From a virus (taxonomy: Duplodnaviria > Caudoviricetes): DNA of 64,000 nt. The stretch lies in IMG/VR virus record IMGVR_UViG_2541047088_000004, positions 1,312-65,311 of that record. One strand, written 5' to 3'. Every line of letters starts with the position of its first letter. Position 1 is the first letter of the stretch. Below, one piece after another: positions 494 through 13,798 of the stretch. The notes under the pieces are model-generated. The model was not told the origin of the DNA, searched no databases, and saw only the letters and a program-made list of their open reading frames with translations. The position numbers were made by a program, and so were the translations under genes.

Positions 494-1121
494 GCTGCAC
501 ATTTCTCTATAACCTCATTATCAAACTGCTTGCCACTTGGTTTAAGCAGTTTGATTCTTTTATATGCTGAAGAAAAAAGCACCCGCCCCCACTGTAAATA
601 AAGTCATTTCAGATTTTTATAGTTACAAAAGCAATAATAATAAACAAAATAAAAGTGAAGATACTTGAAGCTGCTATATGCTCCCACTAAGGCAGTTTTG
701 CAGGGAGAGCCTGTAAATATTATATGGCTCACATTTGCGTGTAACCCTTTATTTTACTGGGTTATTTGGACTTTAGTGGATTCTCATATTGACAGGTATT
801 GCGTTATTGCTTATCTGTAGTTTTTTGCGTAAAACAACGTATTTGACGGCCTCCAAGGACACACAGCGACAGTTTTAAAAAAATCGCCCCTTACTCATAA
901 GTGGCAGACCGCATAGCCTTTGGTATAAGCTGTTTTTACATGCTGCATAGTATAAAGTTACTGCGACAAATAAAAATATTGGTATAGAACGTTTTAAAAA
1001 TTTGCGTTACTATGGTTTCGCTTTATTAGCTTTATGTCTACTGGTTGCAAAACAAAAAGAAAGACGGTCATCATATAGACGACCGCCATAATTATGCTCA
1101 TATTAAGAAATCTTGAAAACC

Positions 1122-1814
1122 TTATTGTAAATCATTAAAAAGTGTAAATATATCACTCTTCAATATCACTGCTATTTCTGCTTCCTCCGACGTATCTCCC
1201 CATCTAAAAATCATATCATTTTCTTGACAAAGGTGAATCGAAAGTCCAAAATAGTCTATTTCATCCTTATACCTTCTACTTCTATATTGATTAAATGCTA
1301 GTCTAAAGATATCCGTTATTGCTTTCTCAGATAAAAAATCATCTTTCCTACTTGCAATAATTGTATACCTTTTAGGATTGCTAGATACTACATCCAATAC
1401 CACTGAAAGGTTTTCAAGCCTAAAGTTAGCAATACTTGAAAAAAACATTTTCCCATCTACTTCAACTTCTATTTCGGGTCCTTTAATTAATGTATCAAGT
1501 TGCCATTTGGTCTCAAGTAACTTCCACACTTTTTTATGTCTTTCAATTCGAGAGTTTTTATCTTTAACTTCCACATTTACAAACAGATATAGTTTATGGT
1601 CTTTTAAAAAATTCTGATTTGTAAATACCTTTTGGATTTCGCTGCTACATAAATCTTTAAAAGCAGTTCTATCGCTTGAACCAAATAACTCTGAGCCATT
1701 TATACTAAACACGCTCAAGCTTGGAACCCTTCCTACCCTTTCGCACGCCTCATCTTTATTAAACCATTGAAAGTAAGAGAACGCATCTTTTTCGATTTCA
1801 TTCCAAATCTTCAT
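1122..1814 (-). CDS. Probable cognate immunity protein of the Rhs nuclease toxin
   Basis: Lies directly downstream of the Rhs stop. GGAGTG SD precedes ATG AAG ATT TGG (start 1814; ORF track gives 1823). Soluble protein with no signal peptide, in the standard toxin-immunity position. Confidence 0.7.
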   Translation of the reverse strand: MKIWNEIEKDAFSYFQWFNKDEACERVGRVPSLSVFSINGSELFGSSDRTAFKDLCSSEIQKVFTNQNFLKDHKLYLFVNVEVKDKNSRIERHKKVWKLLETKWQLDTLIKGPEIEVEVDGKMFFSSIANFRLENLSVVLDVVSSNPKRYTIIASRKDDFLSEKAITDIFRLAFNQYRSRRYKDEIDYFGLSIHLCQENDMIFRWGDTSEEAEIAVILKSDIFTLFNDLQ

Positions 1815-1828
1815 TGTTATCACTCCAT

Positions 1829-2100
1829 TTATTTGTTGTAGTCATAGTGATTACCATCCGGATCATTAAAATGAGGTCCTCTATTTTGTGATGGGTCATC
1901 TGGGAACTCATGTCCACCTGAGTGGTCTCTTATTACCTTTCCATCCCCAAAATCATAATCTTTTCCAGGTATTCTATTTCCCCTTTTGTCAACTGCTGGA
2001 GTTACCTTTTTAGGTTGTTCAGTAACCGGAATATCACTATTTCTCTTAGCTTCCCTAAAAGCACCATTTCTTCCTGCCCCTTCTGGACTAAGATTAGGAG
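1829..2100 (-). other. C-terminal toxin domain, Tox-HNH-EHHH-like (HNH/EndoVII nuclease)
   Basis: AFREAKRNSDIP..QP...IRDHSGGH...GPHFN matches the AF..AK...IP..QP / DHS.GH / GPHFN pattern of this toxin family; lies after the DPTGH autocleavage motif (~2740). Confidence 0.75.
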
Positions 2101-5100
2101 GTTTACTCCCCCCCTCACCAACCGCACTCAACCCACGATTAACCTCCGGTATTTTATTTTCAGCAATCCTGCTAAACATTTTATTGAATATATTTGTTGA
2201 TCCGGTTTCTTCATAGATAATCCTGTTTGTTAAGCCATTTGTCTTTGAAATTAGACCTTTTGCGCTCTCGGCAAATTTTGATGCAGCCGTACCAGCCTCA
2301 CTTTCACTTCCCCCAACAAAGAATGATCCTATAAATACTGCTGCATGTGTGCCAAACTCTGCTCTTGTATGCGCGTTTCCATTTATTATATTTGTATCAA
2401 CATAATTTGTTACTTTACTAGCCACCGAATTCCAGACCGCTTTTGGATCTGCCAGTATCTTTTTATAATTATCTCCAATCTGTTTTATAGTTTCCTTAGG
2501 ATGAGTTATAACCTTAGCTACATCTATTACTTTACCTACAATATCTACCGAATCAGTTATTGTTTTAGCTTCATCATATAGCGCTTCGCCTATGCCAGTT
2601 AAAACAGGTACTTTTTCATCCAAATAATTATAGACTGCTTTTGCTTTCTTTTTTACCGGTTTAACTATGTTTTTGTTAACCCACCGTCCTGCAGATGTAT
2701 CATTTAAAAACCAATCTCTGGCTGAATCCATCCAGCTATGTCCTGTTGGGTCATAATATATAAGAGGATTATTCGCACAATACACATACAAATTCAAACT
2801 AAGCGGGTCATTCCTATCGCCAGTATAAGTATCCTCCTGCAAGAACCGTGCAGTCTTCGGGTCATACATCCTCGCATTCAGGTAATAAAGCCCTGTTTCC
2901 TTGTCATACTGATACCCTGCAAAGGTTATAGAATTGCTTGCTGCTCCTGTGGTGTCAGTGATGTTTCCGAAGGCATCATAATAATATGTTGCTGCTATTG
3001 TTCCGTCTGGTTTCAGCAGTGCTGTTACATCGGCATGTCCGTTGTACATGTAATAGTAGGTGGTTCCGTCGACTGAGCGCATTAACAGGTTTGTGCCGTA
3101 TACGTTTCTGCCTGTCTGGTTGCCTGAGCCGTCCAGTTCCAGCACTACCTTGTCGTATTCGTAGAGATATCTTGTTATTGCTCCGTTTACTGCTTTCTCT
3201 ACTCTATAGCCGTCACCATTGTAGGTGTTTTGTACTGTTATTCCACCTGTGGTAGTTGATATCAGCTGGCTTCTGGCATCGTAGGTGTTTGATACAGTTA
3301 CTGTGCCGTTTACTTCTGTGGTAAGCTGGTTGCCGTTGTTGTCGTAAGTGTATACGGTTGTGGCTGTTGTTGTGCCGTTTAACGTTGTTACTATCTGTGT
3401 CAGATGGTCTTGCTCGTTGTAGGTGTAGGTGTTTACTGTTGCGTTACCGCCAACCGTTATTGTTTCGGTTGCTCTGTTTCCTGCTGCATCGTAGGTGTAC
3501 GTGGTTTTTCTGTTGTTCGGCTCTGTTACTGTTTCAAGTCTGTTCAGCGTATCGTAGGTATAATTTGTTGTACCATTTGAGTCTGTTTTAGAGGCTTGGT
3601 TATGAGCCGCATCATACGTATAGCTGTAGGTGTCTATTATGCTGCCATCAGCTTTTTTATTTGTCAAGGTTCTTAACAGTCCATCTGCGTAATAGGTGTA
3701 ATCTTCTCTTGATCCGTCGTTATATATTACGCTTTGTCTTGCCCCGTTATCAAGATAGTTATAGGTTGTTGTCTTTCCATCGGCTGTTACTGTTTTGAGT
3801 CTTCCTGCCATGTCATAGGTTTTCTGTGTCAGGTTGCCCTTGGGGTCTGTTGAAGTTTCGGCCTGACAGCCTTCTTCCATACCTGTTATTTTATCATACT
3901 CGAAGGTTGTTATTCCAATGTTTGGTACATTTTTTGTAAGCACTCTGTTCTGCTCATCGTAGGTTCTTGTTGTGGTTCCTGTGCTGTCGGTCATTGTGAG
4001 CTGGTTACCGTTGCCATCGTAGGTATAGGAAATTGATATATTTCCTGTGGTCTGGCTCAGCAGCCTTCCGTGTATATCGTAGGTGTATGTGGTTGTAATG
4101 CCGTTCCTGTCTGTCTTTGTGGCAAGGTTTCCGTCTGCATTGTAGGTGTAGGCTTCTGTTTTTGCAGGAACATCGTCATATTTGCCTGCTGTTAACGTTC
4201 TTCCGCCTTGGTCTATACGCTTAGCTACCTTGTTTGCCGCATTGTATTCATATGTCGTTATGTTTCCCCTTCCGTCTGTCTGTGTGAGCAGGTTTCCATT
4301 CAGATCATAGGTATAGCTTGTTGTTTCGTTCTTGGAATTTGTAACTGTTTTAAGCCTATTGAATTCATCGTATGTATAGGTTGTATAGTGCGTTTTATCA
4401 TCAGCAGGTGATATATTTCCCCTTGCGTCTGTTTTGGTTTGTATATTTCCGGCATTGTCATAGGTCTGGCTTGTGGTGTGGTTTTCCGGATCAGTCGTTG
4501 ACAGCAGCCTGTTGTTTTTATCGTAAGTGTATTGTGTCACATTGTTAAGGGCATCATAGGATTTTTCCTGTACATTGCTGTGGTTGTATTCTAGCTTCTG
4601 TATGCTTTTGCCGTACGCATCCTTTTTCTCTATGTGTCTATTTAAGCTGTCATATACATTCTGAGAGGTATTGCCCCTCCAATCGGTTACTGTTGTCTGG
4701 TTTCCGTTGGCATCATAACCATAAGCAGTTTCGTGCATTACCCCTGATACGGTTTGCTTTGATGTTGATATTTTGTTTAATACATTGTAGATATTTTCCG
4801 TTGTATTTTGATTCCCGTCTGTTACATATCTTGCATTTCCGTTTTTGTCATAGCGTGTTGAGGTAGTTATTGCCTGCTTCCCGTCCTCTGCCTGCTGTTT
4901 CTGTGACAGTACATCCCCTTGGTTGTTGTAAGTGTAGGTGTTTACCGCACCTCTTGAGTCCTTCTGTATTTTCAGTCTGCCCATTGCATCATATTGGCTG
5001 ATTATTGTACTTTCAGGGATTGTTATATCTCCCGGGGCTGTTGTTTTTCTTAGCTTGCCCAATGCATTGTATTCATAGGTCGTGGTATTTCCGTTTCCAT

Positions 5101-8100
5101 ACTTCTTTGTCAGCAGATTTCCGACATAGTCATATGTATTTATTTGTATTGTCTGCTCTGCACTGCCTGATGTTTTCTGTACTGTAAGCTTTGTTACATT
5201 TCCCGCATCATCGTAGTTATAATTTTTTATTACTCCATTGGCATATGTTTCAGAGGTTTTTCTTCCTAATGCATCGTAGGAATATTTTGTAGTGTAGCTG
5301 AGTCCTCTGTCTTTTGATACGGCATCTTTTACTGTTATCGGCTTGTCTGCGAGATTGTAGGTGTACTCCGTCCCATAGCCTGTAGAGATTTGTGTATCTA
5401 TGCTTGTTATATCTGTTGCCGACTCTAGTCCTAGCCCGTCCAGTTCCTTTGTAACATTTCCATTGTTATCGTACTGGTAGGCTTTCTGTACTATGCTTAC
5501 CTGTTGTGTTACCCATTCATGCGTTACTGGATCTACCTTCTTTTCCTCGCCCACGTAGGTTTTGGTTTTTACCCTGCCCATGAGGTCATAGGTGTATTCA
5601 ACCCTGTTCATCTGAGAAAGAGTTTTTGCAGGGTCGTAGTCTTTAGGAGCTACCTCGGCTATTTTTCTTCCGACTCTGTCGTAATAAAAAGCTGTGGTAT
5701 TTGTCTCAGCATCTGTTGTTGTTTCCAGCAATCCCCTTTGATTATAGTGGTATTCCGTAATATTGCCATTTGCATCCGTTGTTTTTACAACATTTCCCTG
5801 ACAGTCATATTCGGTGGATGATGCTATTGTTACTGCCTGTTCATTTTCATCAATGCCTGGCTGACTTACTCCTGTCTGTCTGTTCAGGTTATCGTAGTTG
5901 CAAGTGGTTGTTACATCGTCAGGTGTTGTTACCGTTTCAAGGTTTCCATTTTTATCGTAGGTGTAAACAGTTCTTAATATTGTATCCTCAGTGCTGTTAA
6001 AGTCATTTCCTGCTAGATCTCCAGCTTTTACATGAACTTTTTTCTCAGATACTTTTCCTAAATAGTTATTTATGAATTCAGTAACATTTTTATCTGTTGT
6101 ACTTGTGTAAACCGTTTCCTTACTTACATTTCCGTCTGCATCGTATTCGTATTCTGTTTTTCTACCTTCGTTGTCGGTAATGCTCTTTACTTTGCCATTA
6201 TTATAGTAGTCGTAGGTTTTTGTAATTAGCTGCAAGGCTGCTGCGTAAAGTGTAACTGTATCTTTTCCTGCTATTTCATTTTTCTTTCTACCTGCTTTGT
6301 CATAAACAATTTTATTGTATGAATATCTGACAGCCCCGCTTACAGTTTCAAACGGTGTCCACTGCTCGGTAAGCCTGTTAAGGCTGTCATACTTATAGTA
6401 GGTAGTGTTCCCTTTTTCATCAGTTGTGCTGTTTACTGTTCCGTTTTTATTGTAGCTTGTCGAAGCGGTTGTGTTGTCAGCGTTTTTTTGTGATATCAGC
6501 CTATCTGCATAATCATAGGTATATTCTGTGATAGCAACATCCTTCGAATTCAGATATTGCTTCTGTGTTTTCTTGGTTTTGCCGTCTGTCAATATATCAT
6601 AGGAGTATTCCTCAAGCAGAACCTTTTCTGATGCTTGATTATCCTGAAAATATTTCTTAACAGGCCTGTCCATGCAATCATATTCATAGGAATATACTGC
6701 ACCGTTAGGGTTAGTCTGGGTTGCAAGGTTTCCGTAAATATCATAGGTATAGCTTGTTGTGTTATTTGCAGCATCGGTTTTTGTTTTAACCTTTCCGCTT
6801 GCATAGTAAGTATATCTATTACCTGCATCACCGTTATATTCGTTGTCTGAAATATTGTCATTTGCCGAATTGTACAGCTTCGGTGATACCTCTTTTGTTT
6901 TGCGGTTTTCGGAATCATATGTTATTCTGGTAACCTTGTTGCCGTCCTGTATCTGTTTTTCCAGATTTCCGTTTTTATCATATACATAACTTGTTATATT
7001 GCCCTTTGCAGTTGTTTTCTTTATTACCTGACCTGCCGGATTGTATTCAAAGGTAGTAATATTATTTTCGGCATCCTTAACCGTCTTAATATTTCCATAT
7101 GCATCATAGGTGTAAACGGTTGTATTTCCCTCCGGGTCTGTCTCGGCTTCAAGCAAGCCCTTTATCTGGCATTCCGCATCTGTATAGTAATGGTATCTTG
7201 TTATTGCAAAATTGCTATCGGCATCCTTGCTCTCATCATAAATATCAGTACCATTTAAAGGCTGAACCTTTTTTACAATATTTCCCTCTGAATCATAAAT
7301 GTAGAAGGTGTATTTTCCTGATTCATCCTTTTCACTTGTCAGGTTGTTATTGCTGTCATATGTCATTGCCTTTGTAGTTTGATCTGGATTTGTTATTTTC
7401 GTAATATTACCTTTTCCGTCCCTGTCATACTTTGTTGTATTACCGTTTCTATCCCTTACCGAGCTTTCCTCGGCATATTTGTTAATTCCCGATTCCTTGC
7501 TGTATTCATATACTGACGTTTTTCCTTCAGCATCTGTTGACCCTGTTATACTGTAGAAGATGTCATATTCCTGCCTTGAAGTTCTGCCTTTGCTGTCTGT
7601 AATCGTTGTCCTGCGGTTTATGTTATCATACGAATATGTAAGCACATTTCCGTTCACATCAGTTATGTTATTAACCTTGTCCTTGTTTTCACCGGAATGG
7701 TTGTATGTAACAGCTTCAATCAGCTTATTGCCGCTATCCCTGACTTCTGTTACAAAGCCGTCAGAATCATAGTAGTAGAAGGTCGGATTCCCCATTGGAT
7801 CAGTCACCTTTGTTAATCGGCTGCTTGTGTAGTCATATGCAACCGTTCTGTTAGAAGCTTCATCTATTATTTTTTTGATAAGTCCGTTTTCATATGTAAC
7901 GGTATAATGTCTTCCTACCTGGTCAGTCACCCCTTGGACTCTGCCATTGGAATCGACATTTAGTGTAACAGCATTCCCGTTTTTGTCCTGCATTTTTACA
8001 AGGTAGCCGCTTGAATTAAATAAATATTTCGACTGGTCTTTAGCCGTAAGGATAAACGTGCCGTCAGCCTGCTTTTTCAGCGTGTATCTTGAATTATTTG

Positions 8101-11100
8101 CAGTAAACGAGCCATCTGTATTTACACTAAAGGAAAGCATTTTCCCATCCGGCAGTGTTACTGCTTTTATATTTGAATTTATAGCTGTTTTAGTAGTACC
8201 GTCCAAAAAGTCGACATAGGTATATTCTTCGTCCTTTACACTGCCCTCGTAGCTAAAGGTCCAACCCTTGCCCAAAGAGGATGCTTTGTCATTTTGAGAA
8301 TTATATGTTCTGGAAAATGCGATATCAAAGCCTGGCGATACCACCGTCAGGTCGGTGTAGGTTCTTGAGTAGTTACCAGTTGCGGAATTTATGCCGCTTT
8401 GACCAAAGTAGAATTTATGGTTCATTTCAGAGCCAAGCCAAGGGTAATATGCTATGCCATCGCCTACTGTGTCGCCTTCGCCTTCTCCATACCATTTAGG
8501 ATAGACAGACGGTCCGTAGTATGAACCCCAGTAGTTGAATCTGGCGTCGATGGGCATTGTTGAGTATTTTTCGTTATAAATGCCGTAGCTGTTTCCATTG
8601 AAGGTGTTGTATAGTAGGATTGGGGCGGTGGTTGTTTTGAAGTAGATGCCGTAGCCGTAGGAATTGGTGATTTCTGAGTTTGTGAGAGTCAGTTTACCCT
8701 CCACATTTAATGTACCAAAAGCTGTATTATGTTCTATCTCTCCATTGCCATATCTTATCTTTATGTTATCTCCAATGAATTCACCTGTACTTTTTACTTT
8801 TATTCCATCCCACCGTTCATTTGTTTTAGATACCCCATGTCCTCCATATTTTGGGTCTTCAAGTGAAGTAAAAACAATAGGCTTTTCCGCTGTTCCCTGT
8901 GCAATCAATTTCCCTTCTACGTCTATATAGTTATTTTTAGAACCTAGTATTATGGTACCAGGTTGTATAGTTAACATATCTCCATTTTTAACTAGTATGT
9001 TATCACACAAGTAATATGTGCCATTATTTAAAGTATGATATCGAGATGATGTCCATCCGCCTATTCCTATTCCGTTATATTCAACATTTCCAGTATATGT
9101 GTTGTTTTGTATCCTATTGACTATACTAATTACGTCTACGCTTACACCAATATCTATATATATAGGGCAACACCTGTTATTTGTTATACTATTTTTCTCA
9201 ATGCTCAAGATACTCATATCTACTAAATTAATATTATTTTGGTAAATGCGTATGCCATATTTATTTTCACTTACATTATTGTTTTCAATAATTACATTCC
9301 CTTCTCCGTATAATCTAAGACTTATACCTGCATTCGAATTCTGGAAAATAGTATTGTTTTCAACAGTTGCATTTTCTGCTTCGTGTAGTCCAAGTTCTAA
9401 GCCAAACGAATTTTGGGAAATAGCATTGTCCCTTATAGTTATATTACCTTTTGCGTTTGTGTCGTTCCATACGGATATGCCACCACTAGTTTTGAAAATA
9501 GTATTACTTTCAATTGCCATATTCTTTGTCCCATTTTGATCTATCCGTATGCCCAACCCCAAATTTAGAGAGATAGTATTGTTCTTGAGTGTCATTACAC
9601 CACTGGTATCCCCATATATACCACTTTCATTTGTTCCATAAATAACGGTATTTTTAATTGTTGTATCATTTGTAGTATCAATATATACCCCATGTGAGAA
9701 TGAATTACTCACTTCAGAATTTATAAGTGTCAGCTTACCATACGTACATATTGTACCTTTGCCACATCCATATCTCACTTTCACATTATCGCCAACAAAT
9801 TCTCCTGTACGCGATACAGATATACCGACCCAATAGTCTTTATTTGAAGATTCCGAGGTGGTTACTCCAGTACCCCCGTAAGCAGAATCCTTATAAGTAG
9901 TAAATACTATAGCACTACCCGTCGTACCTAAAGCAATTAGCTTTCCCTGTACATTTATCATAGAAGTATGAGTGCTCTTTACTATTACCCCAGGCTCAAC
10001 TGTTAACGTTGCTCCATCTATTATATCTATGTTCTTCGACATATAATAAGTGCCACTGGTTAAAGTAAAATTTTCTTTTAAGCTTCCACCTATCACAACT
10101 TGGTTATACTCAGGATTTTTAGGATACGTATTGTTATTTATTCCAGAAAAAACTGATGACTTCACCCCTCCAATATCAACATATATCGGACTTCCATTTT
10201 TACTTATTATGCTGTTATTCTGAATACTTAAATTACCTGTTCCAAAATGCCCAATCCATATACCTCTAGAGTTTACATCTATAGTATTATTTTTTATTGT
10301 TATATTCTCTGCTCCGTTTAGACCGATACTTATACCATCCGAATCAGACGTAATAATATTATTTTCAAGTGTCACTGTGCCGTTCTCTGTTGTAGAAGTA
10401 TTCCATATATATATACCTGGCCATCCCGAACAATCTATCTTGGTATTTTTTATTATTATATCATTGGAAGTTTTTAAGTAAACTCCAATGTAATTTGAAT
10501 TACTAACTTCTGAGTTTACAAGTGATAATTTACCTAATATGCTCAATGTACTATGATTATTTTCCCATTCTCCACCATACCTTATTTTTACATGTTCCCC
10601 GATAAACTCACCTGTAGAAACTACATTTATACCTCCCCAATAATCTGTTTCTGAGCCTGTTACCCCACTTCCACCATACTCAGCATCCTTCACCGTAGTA
10701 AACACAATATCACTTCCAGTAGTACCAAGCGCAATCAGCTTTCCCTGAACATCTATACCATAATTATTGCTTGTACTTTTTACAATTACCCCAGGCTCAA
10801 CTGTCAGTGTCACTCCGCTCGGTATTGTAATGCTACTTTTCAAAATGTATGGACTGTTAGCCAATGTCCAAGTTGTGTTTTCGCTGATTACTCCCTGTTC
10901 ACATGTAGTTACGGTAACCGGCTTACTATACAAAGATACATTACCCTCTGTATTTATTGCTTTTACAGTATAGGAGTATGTTGTTTTTGACTTTAATTCA
11001 CTATCAGAGTATTTGTTTATCCCTGGTGCCCCTACTTTGACATTATCCCGATATACTTCATAGCCTGTCGCCCCATTAACAGCTTCCCATGCCAGATCAA

Positions 11101-12751
11101 CTGAAATACTTGACGGAGTAGCAACAAGGTTAACAGGAGCAGCAAGCAGCGTATACGTTGATATTTCATTACTCCACTCACTTGTAATCACAGAACTTTT
11201 CGGAAAAGTATAGCTGGGATCTAACATATACTTATTGAACAAAGCAAAATCAAGGGCATTTATTTCATTATCGCCGTTAAGATCAGCAGCCCACATGTCG
11301 TCTTCCACAGGGAAATCATAACTGGAATCCATCATACGCTTCTTGAACAAAGCAAAATCAAGGGCATCTACTATACCATCACCGTTAACATCCCCTACCA
11401 AGCCATTTCCACATGGTTTAACGGCCCTCACCTTAACAGTATGCAAACTGTTAGGTACCAGACTGCTATATGCATAACTTGATGCGGTAACATTAGTAAT
11501 ATTTCCATCAAGTGAGACATCATAGCTCTGGGCATCTGCTACGGCATCCCAGCTTACCGTCAACGTTGTGTCAGTTGAAGTCAAATTTATATTTGCAGGG
11601 ATTAAAATAGCTGCCGGAGTTGTTGTCGCTACTATACTCACCGTAATAAAATTACTGAATCCAGACATATTCCCGGCTTCGTTGAACGCCTTTATTCTAT
11701 ATACATAAGTTGTTCCAACCTCCAACCCGATATCGGAGTATGTATTGCTCTCCGATGTCCCAACTTTTATATCATCCCTGTATATCTCATATCCTGAGGC
11801 TCCTGAAACAGAACCCCATGCCAAATTAACAGAAGTACCTGATATATCAGACGTAATATTGGATGGAGCAGCAAGCAGAGTGTATTTTATTATTTCGGTA
11901 CTCCATTCGCTATTTTCTGTTGAAGCAACGGCCCTTACTTTAATAGTATGCAGACTGTTCGGTACCAGATTGCCATATGTATAGCTTGCTTCGGTGACAT
12001 TTGTAACAGTTCCATCCATTGATACATCGTAGCTCTGGGCATCTGCCACGGCATCCCAGCTCACTTTTAATGTTGTATCAGTAGATGATACACTTATATT
12101 AGTAGGAATTGAAATAGAAGCTGGAGTTGCAGCTTCTACAGCATTTTCTGACATTGGAGCTGTTGCCACTGCTGCCGGTGTTTTATCTGTTCCTTCGAGA
12201 TTCACATTCAGAGGAAACGAAATTGAAGAGCCTGTTGTCTGGTTATTAGCAAGTCCCCTTGAAAGCATGTTTTGAGAAATAGATTTGCTATTTGCCTTAC
12301 TAGCAGCATTTAGAACAGTTAAATTACCTAAATTATCAATAGTTCCAGACTGACTACCGGATGCTGTTAAACCAGACTTTAAAAATTTGAATTGGCTTTT
12401 TTTTGATACTGTCTTGGTCGTTCTGTCCGTATCAGCTACCACAGCATTTGGTGTGTTGCTGGTATGTAGGCTTTTAATATCAGAATTTTTAAATTTCGAA
12501 GTTGAAACCTCTGTCTGCTTATCTCCAGAAGTTATTACCGCTGCTGTTTTTTCATGTGTCAAAGCAGCTGCCTTTTGAGTTTTTGCCTGCTGCTGTGGCA
12601 ATATAGGTGCTGTTACGCTATATGTCGGCTGCTTTACCGTGCCAGCAAGCACCTTCTGCATTCCCAGAGGAGACAAATCTGCTATGCTAAACCCCTGAGT
12701 TGCTATTAATACTGCCAATAAACCTGCTATCCACTTTTTCCCTGTACCCAT
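1829..12751 (-). CDS. Secreted WapA-like RHS/YD-repeat polymorphic toxin with FN3 domains, type I dockerin, beta-helix repeats and C-terminal HNH/EndoVII nuclease
   Basis: N-terminal signal peptide (MGTGKKWIAGLLAVLIA...VLA); FN3 motifs (VSWDAV..Y.V...KVRAV..SEWS); dockerin; DUF6531-like GNYSRTYTDL..FSRTYNS; dozens of YxYDxxGN repeats; core end PLSLNLYVYCANNPLIYYDPTGH. Confidence 0.93.
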   Translation of the reverse strand: MGTGKKWIAGLLAVLIATQGFSIADLSPLGMQKVLAGTVKQPTYSVTAPILPQQQAKTQKAAALTHEKTAAVITSGDKQTEVSTSKFKNSDIKSLHTSNTPNAVVADTDRTTKTVSKKSQFKFLKSGLTASGSQSGTIDNLGNLTVLNAASKANSKSISQNMLSRGLANNQTTGSSISFPLNVNLEGTDKTPAAVATAPMSENAVEAATPASISIPTNISVSSTDTTLKVSWDAVADAQSYDVSMDGTVTNVTEASYTYGNLVPNSLHTIKVRAVASTENSEWSTEIIKYTLLAAPSNITSDISGTSVNLAWGSVSGASGYEIYRDDIKVGTSESNTYSDIGLEVGTTYVYRIKAFNEAGNMSGFSNFITVSIVATTTPAAILIPANINLTSTDTTLTVSWDAVADAQSYDVSLDGNITNVTASSYAYSSLVPNSLHTVKVRAVKPCGNGLVGDVNGDGIVDALDFALFKKRMMDSSYDFPVEDDMWAADLNGDNEINALDFALFNKYMLDPSYTFPKSSVITSEWSNEISTYTLLAAPVNLVATPSSISVDLAWEAVNGATGYEVYRDNVKVGAPGINKYSDSELKSKTTYSYTVKAINTEGNVSLYSKPVTVTTCEQGVISENTTWTLANSPYILKSSITIPSGVTLTVEPGVIVKSTSNNYGIDVQGKLIALGTTGSDIVFTTVKDAEYGGSGVTGSETDYWGGINVVSTGEFIGEHVKIRYGGEWENNHSTLSILGKLSLVNSEVSNSNYIGVYLKTSNDIIIKNTKIDCSGWPGIYIWNTSTTENGTVTLENNIITSDSDGISIGLNGAENITIKNNTIDVNSRGIWIGHFGTGNLSIQNNSIISKNGSPIYVDIGGVKSSVFSGINNNTYPKNPEYNQVVIGGSLKENFTLTSGTYYMSKNIDIIDGATLTVEPGVIVKSTHTSMINVQGKLIALGTTGSAIVFTTYKDSAYGGTGVTTSESSNKDYWVGISVSRTGEFVGDNVKVRYGCGKGTICTYGKLTLINSEVSNSFSHGVYIDTTNDTTIKNTVIYGTNESGIYGDTSGVMTLKNNTISLNLGLGIRIDQNGTKNMAIESNTIFKTSGGISVWNDTNAKGNITIRDNAISQNSFGLELGLHEAENATVENNTIFQNSNAGISLRLYGEGNVIIENNNVSENKYGIRIYQNNINLVDMSILSIEKNSITNNRCCPIYIDIGVSVDVISIVNRIQNNTYTGNVEYNGIGIGGWTSSRYHTLNNGTYYLCDNILVKNGDMLTIQPGTIILGSKNNYIDVEGKLIAQGTAEKPIVFTSLEDPKYGGHGVSKTNERWDGIKVKSTGEFIGDNIKIRYGNGEIEHNTAFGTLNVEGKLTLTNSEITNSYGYGIYFKTTTAPILLYNTFNGNSYGIYNEKYSTMPIDARFNYWGSYYGPSVYPKWYGEGEGDTVGDGIAYYPWLGSEMNHKFYFGQSGINSATGNYSRTYTDLTVVSPGFDIAFSRTYNSQNDKASSLGKGWTFSYEGSVKDEEYTYVDFLDGTTKTAINSNIKAVTLPDGKMLSFSVNTDGSFTANNSRYTLKKQADGTFILTAKDQSKYLFNSSGYLVKMQDKNGNAVTLNVDSNGRVQGVTDQVGRHYTVTYENGLIKKIIDEASNRTVAYDYTSSRLTKVTDPMGNPTFYYYDSDGFVTEVRDSGNKLIEAVTYNHSGENKDKVNNITDVNGNVLTYSYDNINRRTTITDSKGRTSRQEYDIFYSITGSTDAEGKTSVYEYSKESGINKYAEESSVRDRNGNTTKYDRDGKGNITKITNPDQTTKAMTYDSNNNLTSEKDESGKYTFYIYDSEGNIVKKVQPLNGTDIYDESKDADSNFAITRYHYYTDAECQIKGLLEAETDPEGNTTVYTYDAYGNIKTVKDAENNITTFEYNPAGQVIKKTTAKGNITSYVYDKNGNLEKQIQDGNKVTRITYDSENRKTKEVSPKLYNSANDNISDNEYNGDAGNRYTYYASGKVKTKTDAANNTTSYTYDIYGNLATQTNPNGAVYSYEYDCMDRPVKKYFQDNQASEKVLLEEYSYDILTDGKTKKTQKQYLNSKDVAITEYTYDYADRLISQKNADNTTASTSYNKNGTVNSTTDEKGNTTYYKYDSLNRLTEQWTPFETVSGAVRYSYNKIVYDKAGRKKNEIAGKDTVTLYAAALQLITKTYDYYNNGKVKSITDNEGRKTEYEYDADGNVSKETVYTSTTDKNVTEFINNYLGKVSEKKVHVKAGDLAGNDFNSTEDTILRTVYTYDKNGNLETVTTPDDVTTTCNYDNLNRQTGVSQPGIDENEQAVTIASSTEYDCQGNVVKTTDANGNITEYHYNQRGLLETTTDAETNTTAFYYDRVGRKIAEVAPKDYDPAKTLSQMNRVEYTYDLMGRVKTKTYVGEEKKVDPVTHEWVTQQVSIVQKAYQYDNNGNVTKELDGLGLESATDITSIDTQISTGYGTEYTYNLADKPITVKDAVSKDRGLSYTTKYSYDALGRKTSETYANGVIKNYNYDDAGNVTKLTVQKTSGSAEQTIQINTYDYVGNLLTKKYGNGNTTTYEYNALGKLRKTTAPGDITIPESTIISQYDAMGRLKIQKDSRGAVNTYTYNNQGDVLSQKQQAEDGKQAITTSTRYDKNGNARYVTDGNQNTTENIYNVLNKISTSKQTVSGVMHETAYGYDANGNQTTVTDWRGNTSQNVYDSLNRHIEKKDAYGKSIQKLEYNHSNVQEKSYDALNNVTQYTYDKNNRLLSTTDPENHTTSQTYDNAGNIQTKTDARGNISPADDKTHYTTYTYDEFNRLKTVTNSKNETTSYTYDLNGNLLTQTDGRGNITTYEYNAANKVAKRIDQGGRTLTAGKYDDVPAKTEAYTYNADGNLATKTDRNGITTTYTYDIHGRLLSQTTGNISISYTYDGNGNQLTMTDSTGTTTRTYDEQNRVLTKNVPNIGITTFEYDKITGMEEGCQAETSTDPKGNLTQKTYDMAGRLKTVTADGKTTTYNYLDNGARQSVIYNDGSREDYTYYADGLLRTLTNKKADGSIIDTYSYTYDAAHNQASKTDSNGTTNYTYDTLNRLETVTEPNNRKTTYTYDAAGNRATETITVGGNATVNTYTYNEQDHLTQIVTTLNGTTTATTVYTYDNNGNQLTTEVNGTVTVSNTYDARSQLISTTTGGITVQNTYNGDGYRVEKAVNGAITRYLYEYDKVVLELDGSGNQTGRNVYGTNLLMRSVDGTTYYYMYNGHADVTALLKPDGTIAATYYYDAFGNITDTTGAASNSITFAGYQYDKETGLYYLNARMYDPKTARFLQEDTYTGDRNDPLSLNLYVYCANNPLIYYDPTGHSWMDSARDWFLNDTSAGRWVNKNIVKPVKKKAKAVYNYLDEKVPVLTGIGEALYDEAKTITDSVDIVGKVIDVAKVITHPKETIKQIGDNYKKILADPKAVWNSVASKVTNYVDTNIINGNAHTRAEFGTHAAVFIGSFFVGGSESEAGTAASKFAESAKGLISKTNGLTNRIIYEETGSTNIFNKMFSRIAENKIPEVNRGLSAVGEGGSKPPNLSPEGAGRNGAFREAKRNSDIPVTEQPKKVTPAVDKRGNRIPGKDYDFGDGKVIRDHSGGHEFPDDPSQNRGPHFNDPDGNHYDYNK
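11198..11395 (-). other. Type I dockerin domain within the Rhs protein
   Basis: Duplicated Ca-binding loop-helix GDVNGDGIVDALDFALFKK ... ADLNGDNEINALDFALFNKY; a 25-bp identical internal repeat at 11235-11259 and 11343-11367. Confidence 0.92.
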
Positions 12752-12823
12752 GCTATCTTCTCCTAAATTATAACTTTAAAGGTATATATATTTATATTTT
12801 GTAAAATATTAACTCATTGCTAA

Positions 12824-12852
12824 ATTTTATGTCGAATGTGATATTTTGTCAA
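12824..12852 (-). promoter_or_regulatory. Sigma-A-type promoter of the Rhs-immunity operon
   Basis: TTGACA-17 nt-TAAAAT on the minus strand, about 70 nt upstream of the Rhs ATG, which has an AGGAG SD. Confidence 0.7.
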
Positions 12853-12867: not shown

Positions 12868-13113
12868 TTATATTTGTAATGCTTTCGCCCTAAGGTAAAG
12901 CCTGAATATTCTTTTTACAAGCTCTGCCTCCCCTGGTACTATGATCAGCTCTCGGACTTCATTTTTGGCGTATCCCAGGAATTTATTGCGATTAACCTGT
13001 ACCTTACCCTGCTGAAGAGGTGTACGATACCCCATCTGGTGTTGGTGCTTAATGATCGGCTTTCCTCCTGTCATAAGAGGCTCATTGCAAAGAATCTCGC
13101 GGAATAAACGCAA
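12868..13113 (-). pseudogene. Serine recombinase fragment (recombinase domain)
   Basis: NRNKFLGYAKNEVRELIIVPGEAELVKRIFRLYL is homologous to the FLGY.K...G.L.I...EA..V.RIF motif of the neighbouring recombinases; both ends missing. Confidence 0.7.
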
Positions 13114-13130
13114 ATGAAGATCTTAAAAAT

Positions 13131-13171
13131 AAAAAACCGTCAACCAGAAGATATTCTCTCTCAATTGACGG
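13131..13171 (-). terminator. Probable intrinsic terminator
   Basis: CCGTCAA...TTGACGG stem followed by a T-run on the minus strand. Confidence 0.4.
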
Positions 13172-13209
13172 CGTAATCAAATATTATTGTATTCTATTTC
13201 TAAATACCC

Positions 13210-13798
13210 CTATTCCCATCTCACCTCACTCCCATCCAGCAACCCCACACTCACCCCATCCTCATAAACTACTACCTTCTCAACCAATTTAAAGAACAAA
13301 TCAGCCTCAAACCTCTCAATTGGCTTTGCACCTTTAACAAAACCTATAAACTTCTTGGCAGTAACCCTCTTTAATATATTCTCGCTGTTAAATTGACTCT
13401 CCCACTTTGTCATATAGTAATCTATATTTTTGCCAATCTCATTAAACTCAAAAACAAATACCTCATATAAAGAACCTCATCATCAATATGCCTGTTGTCA
13501 CAGCCCTTTCTTCCTTTAACCGCATACTTATTATTGCACTGCCAAACGGTTCTTTTTAATCTTTCATCATTAGAGTTCCATATCTTCCTTCCATAGACTC
13601 CTCCACAGCAGCCGCAGATAATTCTGTCCATAAATGTGTTATCATTCGTAATATAGTCCATCTTTTGAATATTGTACTTCTCCATAAAGGCTTTTCTTCT
13701 CTCCCTTTCAAGCTGTACTGCTTTCCACGTGTCTCTATCTATAATTGGTGGGTGGCTCTCCTCAACATAATACTGTGCCACTTCCCCTTTATTCTCTA
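13210..13798 (-). pseudogene. Truncated, frameshifted 3' half of a large serine recombinase (paralogue of 25991-27403)
   Basis: 13465-13798 is nearly identical in DNA to 26255-26587; a frameshift near 13465 splits it into ORFs 13422-13832 and 13210-13413; the catalytic N-terminus is absent. Confidence 0.85.

Follow-up and report, generated by a model that had tools for sequence, protein, structure and literature searches.

A polymorphic Rhs toxin operon with a predicted dockerin anchor in a cellulosome producer

We analysed a 64,000-nucleotide stretch of DNA (positions 1,312 to 65,311 of IMG/VR record IMGVR_UViG_2541047088_000004; hereafter the window) together with the genome it belongs to (G000). 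Near the start of the window, an operon on the minus strand encodes a 3640-aa Rhs protein (P0001) and a smaller downstream protein (P0002). The locus is strongly supported by its sequence and by comparison with relatives as a polymorphic Rhs toxin with an immunity gene. The best explanation of the whole is a dockerin-anchored, Sec-exported WapA-like Rhs toxin and immunity operon, a reading that we hold to be fairly probable. Its dockerin probably tethers the toxin to the cellulosome or to the cell surface. What appears to distinguish it is precisely this combination: in a cellulosome producer, an Rhs toxin with no recognisable anchor other than a conserved dockerin of the type found in its host.

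The toxin gene is a single open reading frame (ORF) of 3640 aa (1829..12751 with the stop codon, on the minus strand, as are all features of the operon given below). Domain calls are based on Pfam and NCBIfam profile searches, each match being above the curated cut-off. A predicted Sec signal peptide spans residues 1 to about 24 (12680..12751); inspection of the N-terminus by eye rather than by a predictor finds two lysines (K-K), a 15-residue hydrophobic core and S-I-A before D, and the N-termini of the orthologs are similar. Pfam matches fn3, the fibronectin type III (FN3) family, in four stretches, from which we delimit FN3 domains 1 and 2 (residues 208-378, 11618..12130, with the domain ends located at YTLLAAP), FN3 domain 3 with a dockerin in its F-G loop (residues 379-545, 11117..11617) and FN3 domain 4 (residues 546-626, 10874..11116). 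Three right-handed beta-helix repeats occupy residues 627-1440 (8432..10873; anchors at 649, 916 and 1260), with five stretches of the toxin matching Beta_helix.

The remainder of the protein is an Rhs cage with its cargo. DUF6531, the N-terminal plug region of the Rhs shell (residues 1454-1514, 8210..8392; E 5e-12), precedes the RHS/YD-repeat shell and Rhs-associated core (residues 1515-3338, 2738..8209), in which RHS_repeat is matched in 16 stretches (E 2.8e-128) and YD_repeat_2x with an E value of 8.2e-84. The match to Rhs_assc_core (TIGR03696) covers the full length of the profile (residues 3258-3338, E 2.7e-21) and ends in the DPTGH autocleavage motif (residues 3334-3338, 2738-2752), where cleavage is predicted from the motif. 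At the extreme C-terminus lies Tox-HNH-EHHH (PF15657; residues 3586-3638, 1838-1996), a predicted nuclease and the sole copy in the G000 genome (E 2e-9 and 38.1 bits, or E 4.7e-11 and 43.3 bits when the C-terminus is searched alone, against a cut-off of 25). The initial annotation had described these modules in one 3640-aa ORF and had proposed a profile search for Dockerin_1, RHS_repeat and Tox-HNH-EHHH; all of the modules, including these three, are matched above the cut-offs. The Pfam scan of the toxin gave no match to PAAR, LXG or WXG, leaving it clear of type VI and type VII secretion system adaptors.

Comparison with the sister genome G007 (one contig, 4,613,747 bp) reveals the polymorphic character of the toxin. 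The G007 Rhs ortholog shows 96% identity over residues 1-3557, followed by a last ~80-110 residues that are unrelated (21%). The swap junction is therefore located ~220 aa past DPTGH and not at DPTGH itself, and the predicted cargo of 302 aa consists of a conserved 220-aa segment (residues 3339-3557, 2081..2737) and an 83-aa swappable HNH-EHHH tip (residues 3558-3640, 1832..2080), which is found behind other carriers elsewhere. Downstream of the G007 ortholog are an 84-aa ORF unlike P0002 and then two orphan modules, each of which repeats the conserved gene end with a further tip and its own small ORF. Residues 3339-3557 are 94-96% shared with the G007 main copy and both of these orphan modules.

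Conversely, the G007 tip and its 84-aa partner persist in G000 as a displaced orphan with 99.5% nucleotide identity. This orphan (C94:6667-7466), a 102-aa tip ORF and an 84-aa immunity ORF, lies ~7 kb downstream of the operon, 6.7-7.5 kb before the window start, and is separated from the operon by a helix-turn-helix (HTH) gene, a resolvase and an IS110 transposase. Within the window itself, no orphan RHS C-terminal array was found directly downstream of the operon. We also observed a 242-aa ORF with a sub-threshold RiboL-PSP HEPN match between the IS110 transposase and the orphan tip (L009, G000 C94, 7510-8238). Through the orphan 84-aa ORF, G000 is predicted to be immune to the G007 toxin; G007 is without P0002.

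The downstream gene (1122..1814) encodes 230 aa from the ATG at 1814, the residue at which its homologues begin. P0002 matched no Pfam or NCBIfam family, and its homologues form ~120 clusters at 50% identity. For linkage, we used the seven genome loci from other genera that were fetched with the alignment of P0002 homologues. In 5 of these 7, the P0002 homologue is found 7-62 nt after an ORF with the same HNH-EHHH tip. The carrier of this tip is an RHS protein in Anaeromicropila populeti, a choline-binding-repeat protein in Clostridium sp. LS and a short ORF in Lachnotalea, while two Bacillus genomes have 64-aa orphan HNH tips within long arrays of small ORFs. A sixth homologue adjoins a SUKH immunity gene. 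Joint movement of a tip and its partner behind carriers that are unrelated is characteristic of toxin-immunity cassettes, and P0002 is accordingly the predicted cognate immunity protein of the HNH tip. Among the 38 species genomes of the genus P0002 occurs in G000 only, suggesting that the tip-immunity cassette is a recent import. The proposal of the initial annotation that the operon encodes a toxin with its immunity protein is thus borne out by the G007 tip swap, the displaced orphans and the linkage of tip and P0002 behind other carriers. The AlphaFold2 model of P0002 is confident (pLDDT, the predicted local distance difference test, 87.3) and has no convincing fold in the PDB (Foldseek best E 3e-3; VIA-align best Z 4.5), which is not proof of a novel fold.

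The conserved segment between cleavage site and tip (residues 3339-3557) has no match in Pfam or PDB, and no solved relative was found for the C-terminal 302 aa, nuclease tip included. The segment contains a Gly-rich hydrophobic stretch. By analogy with the C-terminal entry domains of CdiA, we regard it as a candidate entry or translocation module.

Next, we examined the dockerin in the context of its host. A profile search of the G000 genome finds 8 cohesins in 3 proteins and ~72 dockerins. Six of the cohesins are in one frame (the scaffoldin), one is the single cohesin of an OrfX-like protein and one is divergent. With this gene content, G000, the genome of a cellulose-degrading clostridium, is that of a true cellulosome producer. 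The OrfX-like protein has an N-terminal hydrophobic segment, a Ser/Thr linker and one cohesin; we take it to be membrane-anchored, an assumption in keeping with the hydrophobic segment. The third cohesin protein (L008, G000:C13, 1219-1812) is a 197-aa ORF with no evident signal peptide, which is found beside small secreted proteins and whose acidic tail resembles a dockerin loop.

The Dockerin_1 match of the toxin covers residues 453-510 (11222..11395) with an E value of 3.4e-13, and scores 58.6 bits against a cut-off of 22.9 in the genome search. We defined an intact calcium loop as having D or N at positions 1, 3, 5, 9 and 12 in each of the two segments. Both loops of the toxin dockerin, DVNGDGIVDALD and DLNGDNEINALD, are intact, and they align end to end with the other 71 dockerins of the host. 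At the recognition positions 10-11, both segments have AL, the modal recognition pair in G000 (27/70 and 28/70 dockerins, by segment). This agrees with the earlier description of a complete type I dockerin with the AL recognition residues typical of R. cellulolyticum-group cellulosomes.

In the alignment, the dockerin comes after the F strand (...KVRAV) of the third FN3 domain, a near-copy of the first, and is followed by the G strand (SEWS...YTLL) of that domain. The same module, hereafter FN3[dockerin], is found in five proteins, with the modules of the relatives 55-60% identical to that of the window. The calcium-ligand positions are invariant in all five, and identity is 66% in the dockerin columns compared to 59% in the surrounding FN3 and 42-56% over the whole proteins. 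The loop insertion rests on the sequence alignment, as the AlphaFold2 model is too weak to add to it. Taken together, these features show that the toxin has a true and conserved dockerin, of the same type as those of its host. Recognition pairs A-L and A-I are used across the genus, and a comparison of co-variation between species had no contrast to read.

FN3[dockerin] fused to RHS recurs in relatives: it is present in G000, G007, G031 and G036 as well as in the metagenomic proteins P0008 and P0012, and the G036 Rhs protein matches P0010 of Ruminiclostridium sufflavum. In Anaerobacterium chartisolvens an RHS protein has its dockerin outside FN3, from which it follows that this fusion arose independently. 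Among the 120 large RHS proteins closest to the toxin, a dockerin (PF00404) is present in only 5, and others have PG_binding_1, LysM, SH3 or SLH modules. The dockerin-RHS proteins that come from named organisms are all from cellulolytic clostridia. Fusions of dockerin with RHS, for which a search across clostridia had been suggested at the outset, were found in 4 of the 38 genus genomes. Where relatives have wall-binding modules, the dockerin is here the sole recognisable anchor, the Pfam scan of P0001 having found no other anchor module; the simplest reading is that the dockerin replaces the wall anchor where the host owns cohesins.

In three loci, a secreted FN3[dockerin] gene is found directly upstream of a dockerin-less RHS gene on the same strand. 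These split loci are five-gene operons in G036 and G031 and, additionally, a gene pair in G031. The five-gene operon is conserved and on one strand (L051, G036:C8, 3-17509; L052, G031:C8, 749-19646). Its first genes encode a secreted FN3[dockerin] protein of ~1000 aa and a 1091-aa FN3 protein; two helper proteins of ~300-336 aa follow, with N-terminal hydrophobic segments, no Pfam family and 67% identity between the species, and the last gene encodes a dockerin-less Rhs protein of 3040-3440 aa. This operon resembles the fused toxin divided over separate genes. No homologue of the two ~320-aa helpers was found in G000. The G031 gene pair (L020, 4078-8034; L054, G031:C46, 100-9093) encodes a 1318-aa secreted protein with FN3[dockerin], CHB_HEX_C, a Kelch propeller and BspA-type leucine-rich repeats, and then a 2997-aa secreted VWA-Rhs protein. 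The metagenomic protein P0008, of 5147 aa, seems to unite this pair in one polypeptide. A further dockerin of G031 (G031:C60:21871-22020) is located inside a 6036-aa open frame and may belong to another giant dockerin protein.

The toxin resembles WapA/WapI of Bacillus subtilis and the Sec-exported Rhs toxins of Gram-positive bacteria (for example Streptococcus suis WapA, PMC12704120) in its signal peptide, N-terminal retention region, YD/RHS shell, Rhs core with a DPxGx motif, polymorphic C-terminal nuclease and adjacent immunity gene. Moreover, a Ruminiclostridium hungatei relative (P0235) is annotated as WapA. Unlike WapA/WapI, the toxin has as its presumed retention module a type I dockerin in an FN3 loop instead of a wall-binding repeat. 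Its stalk, with four FN3 domains and three beta-helices, is much longer, its tip belongs to HNH-EHHH and is not a tRNase, and its swap junction is ~220 aa past the cleavage motif.

On the cellulosome side, the toxin resembles the type I dockerin enzymes of the Ruminiclostridium cellulolyticum/josui group (PMC5748583): its dockerin has two segments with A-L/A-I recognition residues, and its host has a CipA-type scaffoldin and an orfX gene. The G000 counts of 8 cohesins in 3 proteins and ~72 dockerins equal the C. josui JCM17888 row in Table 1 of that study, which makes R. josui or a very close relative the probable host. In contrast to the enzymes of this group, the cargo of the dockerin is a ~400-kDa toxin cage and not a carbohydrate-active enzyme, and the dockerin is inserted in a loop rather than terminal.

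The presence of Rhs modules in cellulosome inventories is not new. They have been catalogued in dockerin- and cohesin-bearing proteins of Acetivibrio cellulolyticus (PMC3413522) and Clostridium alkalicellulosi (PMC6780208), and the X-dockerin of ScaP2, an Rhs-containing protein of the latter, bound type II cohesins in vitro (PMC6780208), which is a precedent for the docking of an Rhs-dockerin protein. Both studies treat Rhs as a module of unknown function and report neither a toxin tip nor an immunity gene. Compared by description, these ScaO/ScaP "scaffoldins" are similar to the present toxin in having Rhs repeats and a dockerin in one polypeptide of a cellulosome producer, but they also carry cohesins, peptidases and galactose oxidase, whereas the toxin carries a type I dockerin only and belongs to a simple-cellulosome host. 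Neither toxins nor Rhs are mentioned in a cellulosome review of 2025 or in a genomic survey of cellulosomes from 2024, and no characterised cellulosome-borne toxin was found in the literature searched. The earlier remark that no characterised example is known consequently stands for the toxin function; it does not stand for the combination of Rhs modules with dockerins or cohesins, already catalogued, nor for docking, given the binding of the ScaP2 X-dockerin.

A 2026 Pandoomain survey (PMC13483458) lists dockerin and cohesin among the "trafficking and repetitive domains" of PT-TG polymorphic toxins. As in those toxins, the dockerin here is in the N-terminal part of a polymorphic toxin; unlike them, the carrier is an RHS cage with no PT-TG domain. 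The survey gives no mechanism or binding data. Membership of the PT-TG group was considered and rejected: residues 3339-3640 have no PF14449 match at E<=1, only the HNH tip and a chance match to Tsp45I.

We propose the following mechanism. After Sec export, the FN3-loop dockerin would bind a type I cohesin of the producer in a calcium-dependent manner, be it one of the six on the scaffoldin or the single cohesin of the OrfX-like protein presumed to be membrane-anchored. The operon has no private cohesin, and the cohesins of the cellulosome are the only partners that the genome offers. The dockerin would thereby do the job of the peptidoglycan-binding, LysM, SH3 or SLH modules and hold the cage at the interface of cell and cellulose. 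Upon contact with a neighbouring cell, the cage would release its self-cleaved cargo, the conserved 220-aa segment may help the cargo to enter, and the HNH tip would cut the nucleic acid of the target unless the immunity protein is present. We infer that a toxin loaded onto the cellulosome in this way may kill competitors that scavenge the released sugars. More tentative is the broader proposition that a simple cellulosome uses its cohesin-dockerin system to mount weapons (on scaffoldin or OrfX) or to aim them (at the vacant cohesins of rivals); we consider it possible rather than probable.

Several points weigh against the proposed mechanism. The toxin dockerin is internal, with 460 aa before it and 3130 after, compared to nearly all other host dockerins, which are terminal, and its accessibility is assumed. 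The AlphaFold2 model of the FN3[dockerin] module, built from a 5-row alignment, has low confidence (pLDDT 57.7). Fused forms are found in only 4 of the 38 genus genomes, which makes the fusion a sporadic device. The signal peptide is a prediction by eye, the role of the 220-aa segment is argued solely by the CdiA analogy, and the binding, localisation, expression and toxicity of the toxin are all predicted from sequence.

One can ask whether the dockerin has a partner at all. It could be a relic or a structural calcium-binding insert without a cohesin partner in vivo, with the toxin simply secreted or held by its FN3 and beta-helix domains on the wall or on plant polysaccharide. The internal, loop-inserted position unlike that of the host enzyme dockerins would fit, the three beta-helix repeats could themselves bind carbohydrate, and no cohesin gene adjoins the operon. 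Nonetheless, the calcium ligands do not vary, orthologs of 55-60% identity preserve the dockerin better than the FN3 around it, the modal recognition pair of the host is present, a dockerin-RHS fusion arose independently in A. chartisolvens and the named dockerin-RHS proteins are all from cellulolytic clostridia. We therefore regard a dockerin without a partner as unlikely, albeit the best surviving of the alternatives.

Less likely still, though not negligible, is a role of the dockerin in targeting, in which the toxin, once secreted, would attach to the vacant cohesins (scaffoldin or OrfX) of competing cellulosome producers, with the rival cohesin as its receptor. A cohesin specific to the species group would select related rivals on the same fibre, in keeping with the fact that polymorphic toxins act mainly on close relatives. 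In addition, the delivery part is 96% identical in G000 and G007 and the tip and immunity gene differ, the immunity gene is in G000 only among the 38 genus genomes, G000 retains an orphan immunity gene against the G007 tip, and the A-L and A-I pairs occur genus-wide, so that the cohesins of rivals should fit. However, the rival cohesins would have to vie for the dockerin with the abundant ones of the producer itself, no cohesin is known to act as a toxin receptor, and the equivalent modules in relatives are self-anchoring wall binders. Anchoring of the toxin to the producer's own cohesins remains the reading that we prefer.

The signals of the operon are as follows. A sigma-A-type promoter, TTGACA-17-TAAAAT (12824..12852), matches 11/12 positions and is located ~70 nt before the toxin ATG; it is the top-scoring promoter-like site of the region, although such sites as a class are not in excess there (42 compared to 39.5 in shuffles). 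An AGGAG ribosome-binding site precedes the toxin ATG. The gap between the toxin stop and the immunity ATG is 14 nt and contains GGAG, and an intrinsic terminator with a 10-bp stem followed by a T-run marks the operon end (1063..1087). Both the consensus promoter and the tight coupling of the downstream gene noted in the initial annotation are hence recovered, the promoter with the reservation just given.

Upstream of 13.4 kb, the window contains serine recombinases and then a siphovirus prophage with genes for portal, capsid, TerL terminase, Gp37-like tail protein, methylase, D5-type primase and DNA polymerase A. The segment from 13447 to about 64337 (past the window end, ~51 kb) is present in G000 and absent at the same site of G007; large serine recombinase genes of this insertion, whole and fragmentary, are found at 13.4-20.7 kb and 26.0-28.6 kb. 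The Rhs gene and ~700 bp upstream of it are common to both genomes. Just upstream of the toxin promoter, serine-recombinase fragments (Recombinase, Zn-ribbon; 12868-13447) are also found in G007, and these fragments consequently predate the prophage insertion.

It is very improbable that the operon is cargo of this prophage or of an adjacent mobile element, acting in superinfection exclusion or addiction: the serine recombinases and prophage do begin ~700 bp upstream, and an HTH gene, a resolvase and an IS110 element lie downstream, but this is largely refuted by G007, which has the RHS gene and the 700 bp upstream without the prophage, and the tip and immunity cassette alone bears signs of recent acquisition. 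We accordingly place the operon on the chromosome. A prophage cargo gene (moron) was rejected as a candidate, the gene being outside the insertion bounds and G007 carrying the gene and its upstream 700 bp and not 13447 to about 64337.

Cellulosomes are regarded as enzyme-display machines, and the route of Gram-positive Rhs toxins from the producer surface to the target cell is poorly understood. If the dockerin anchors the toxin as proposed, cohesin-dockerin pairing would be a means of contact-dependent competition on plant fibre, which would go some way towards explaining how the sugars set free by primary degraders are protected. Such pairing would also give Gram-positive Rhs toxins a further retention or targeting principle, and the "Rhs modules" long listed in cellulosome inventories would have to be reinterpreted. 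Were the dockerin to serve in aiming, the rival's own scaffoldin would be the toxin receptor; were it to serve as a mount, the cellulose-bound complex would carry a 400-kDa Rhs nuclease cage that kills neighbouring cells.

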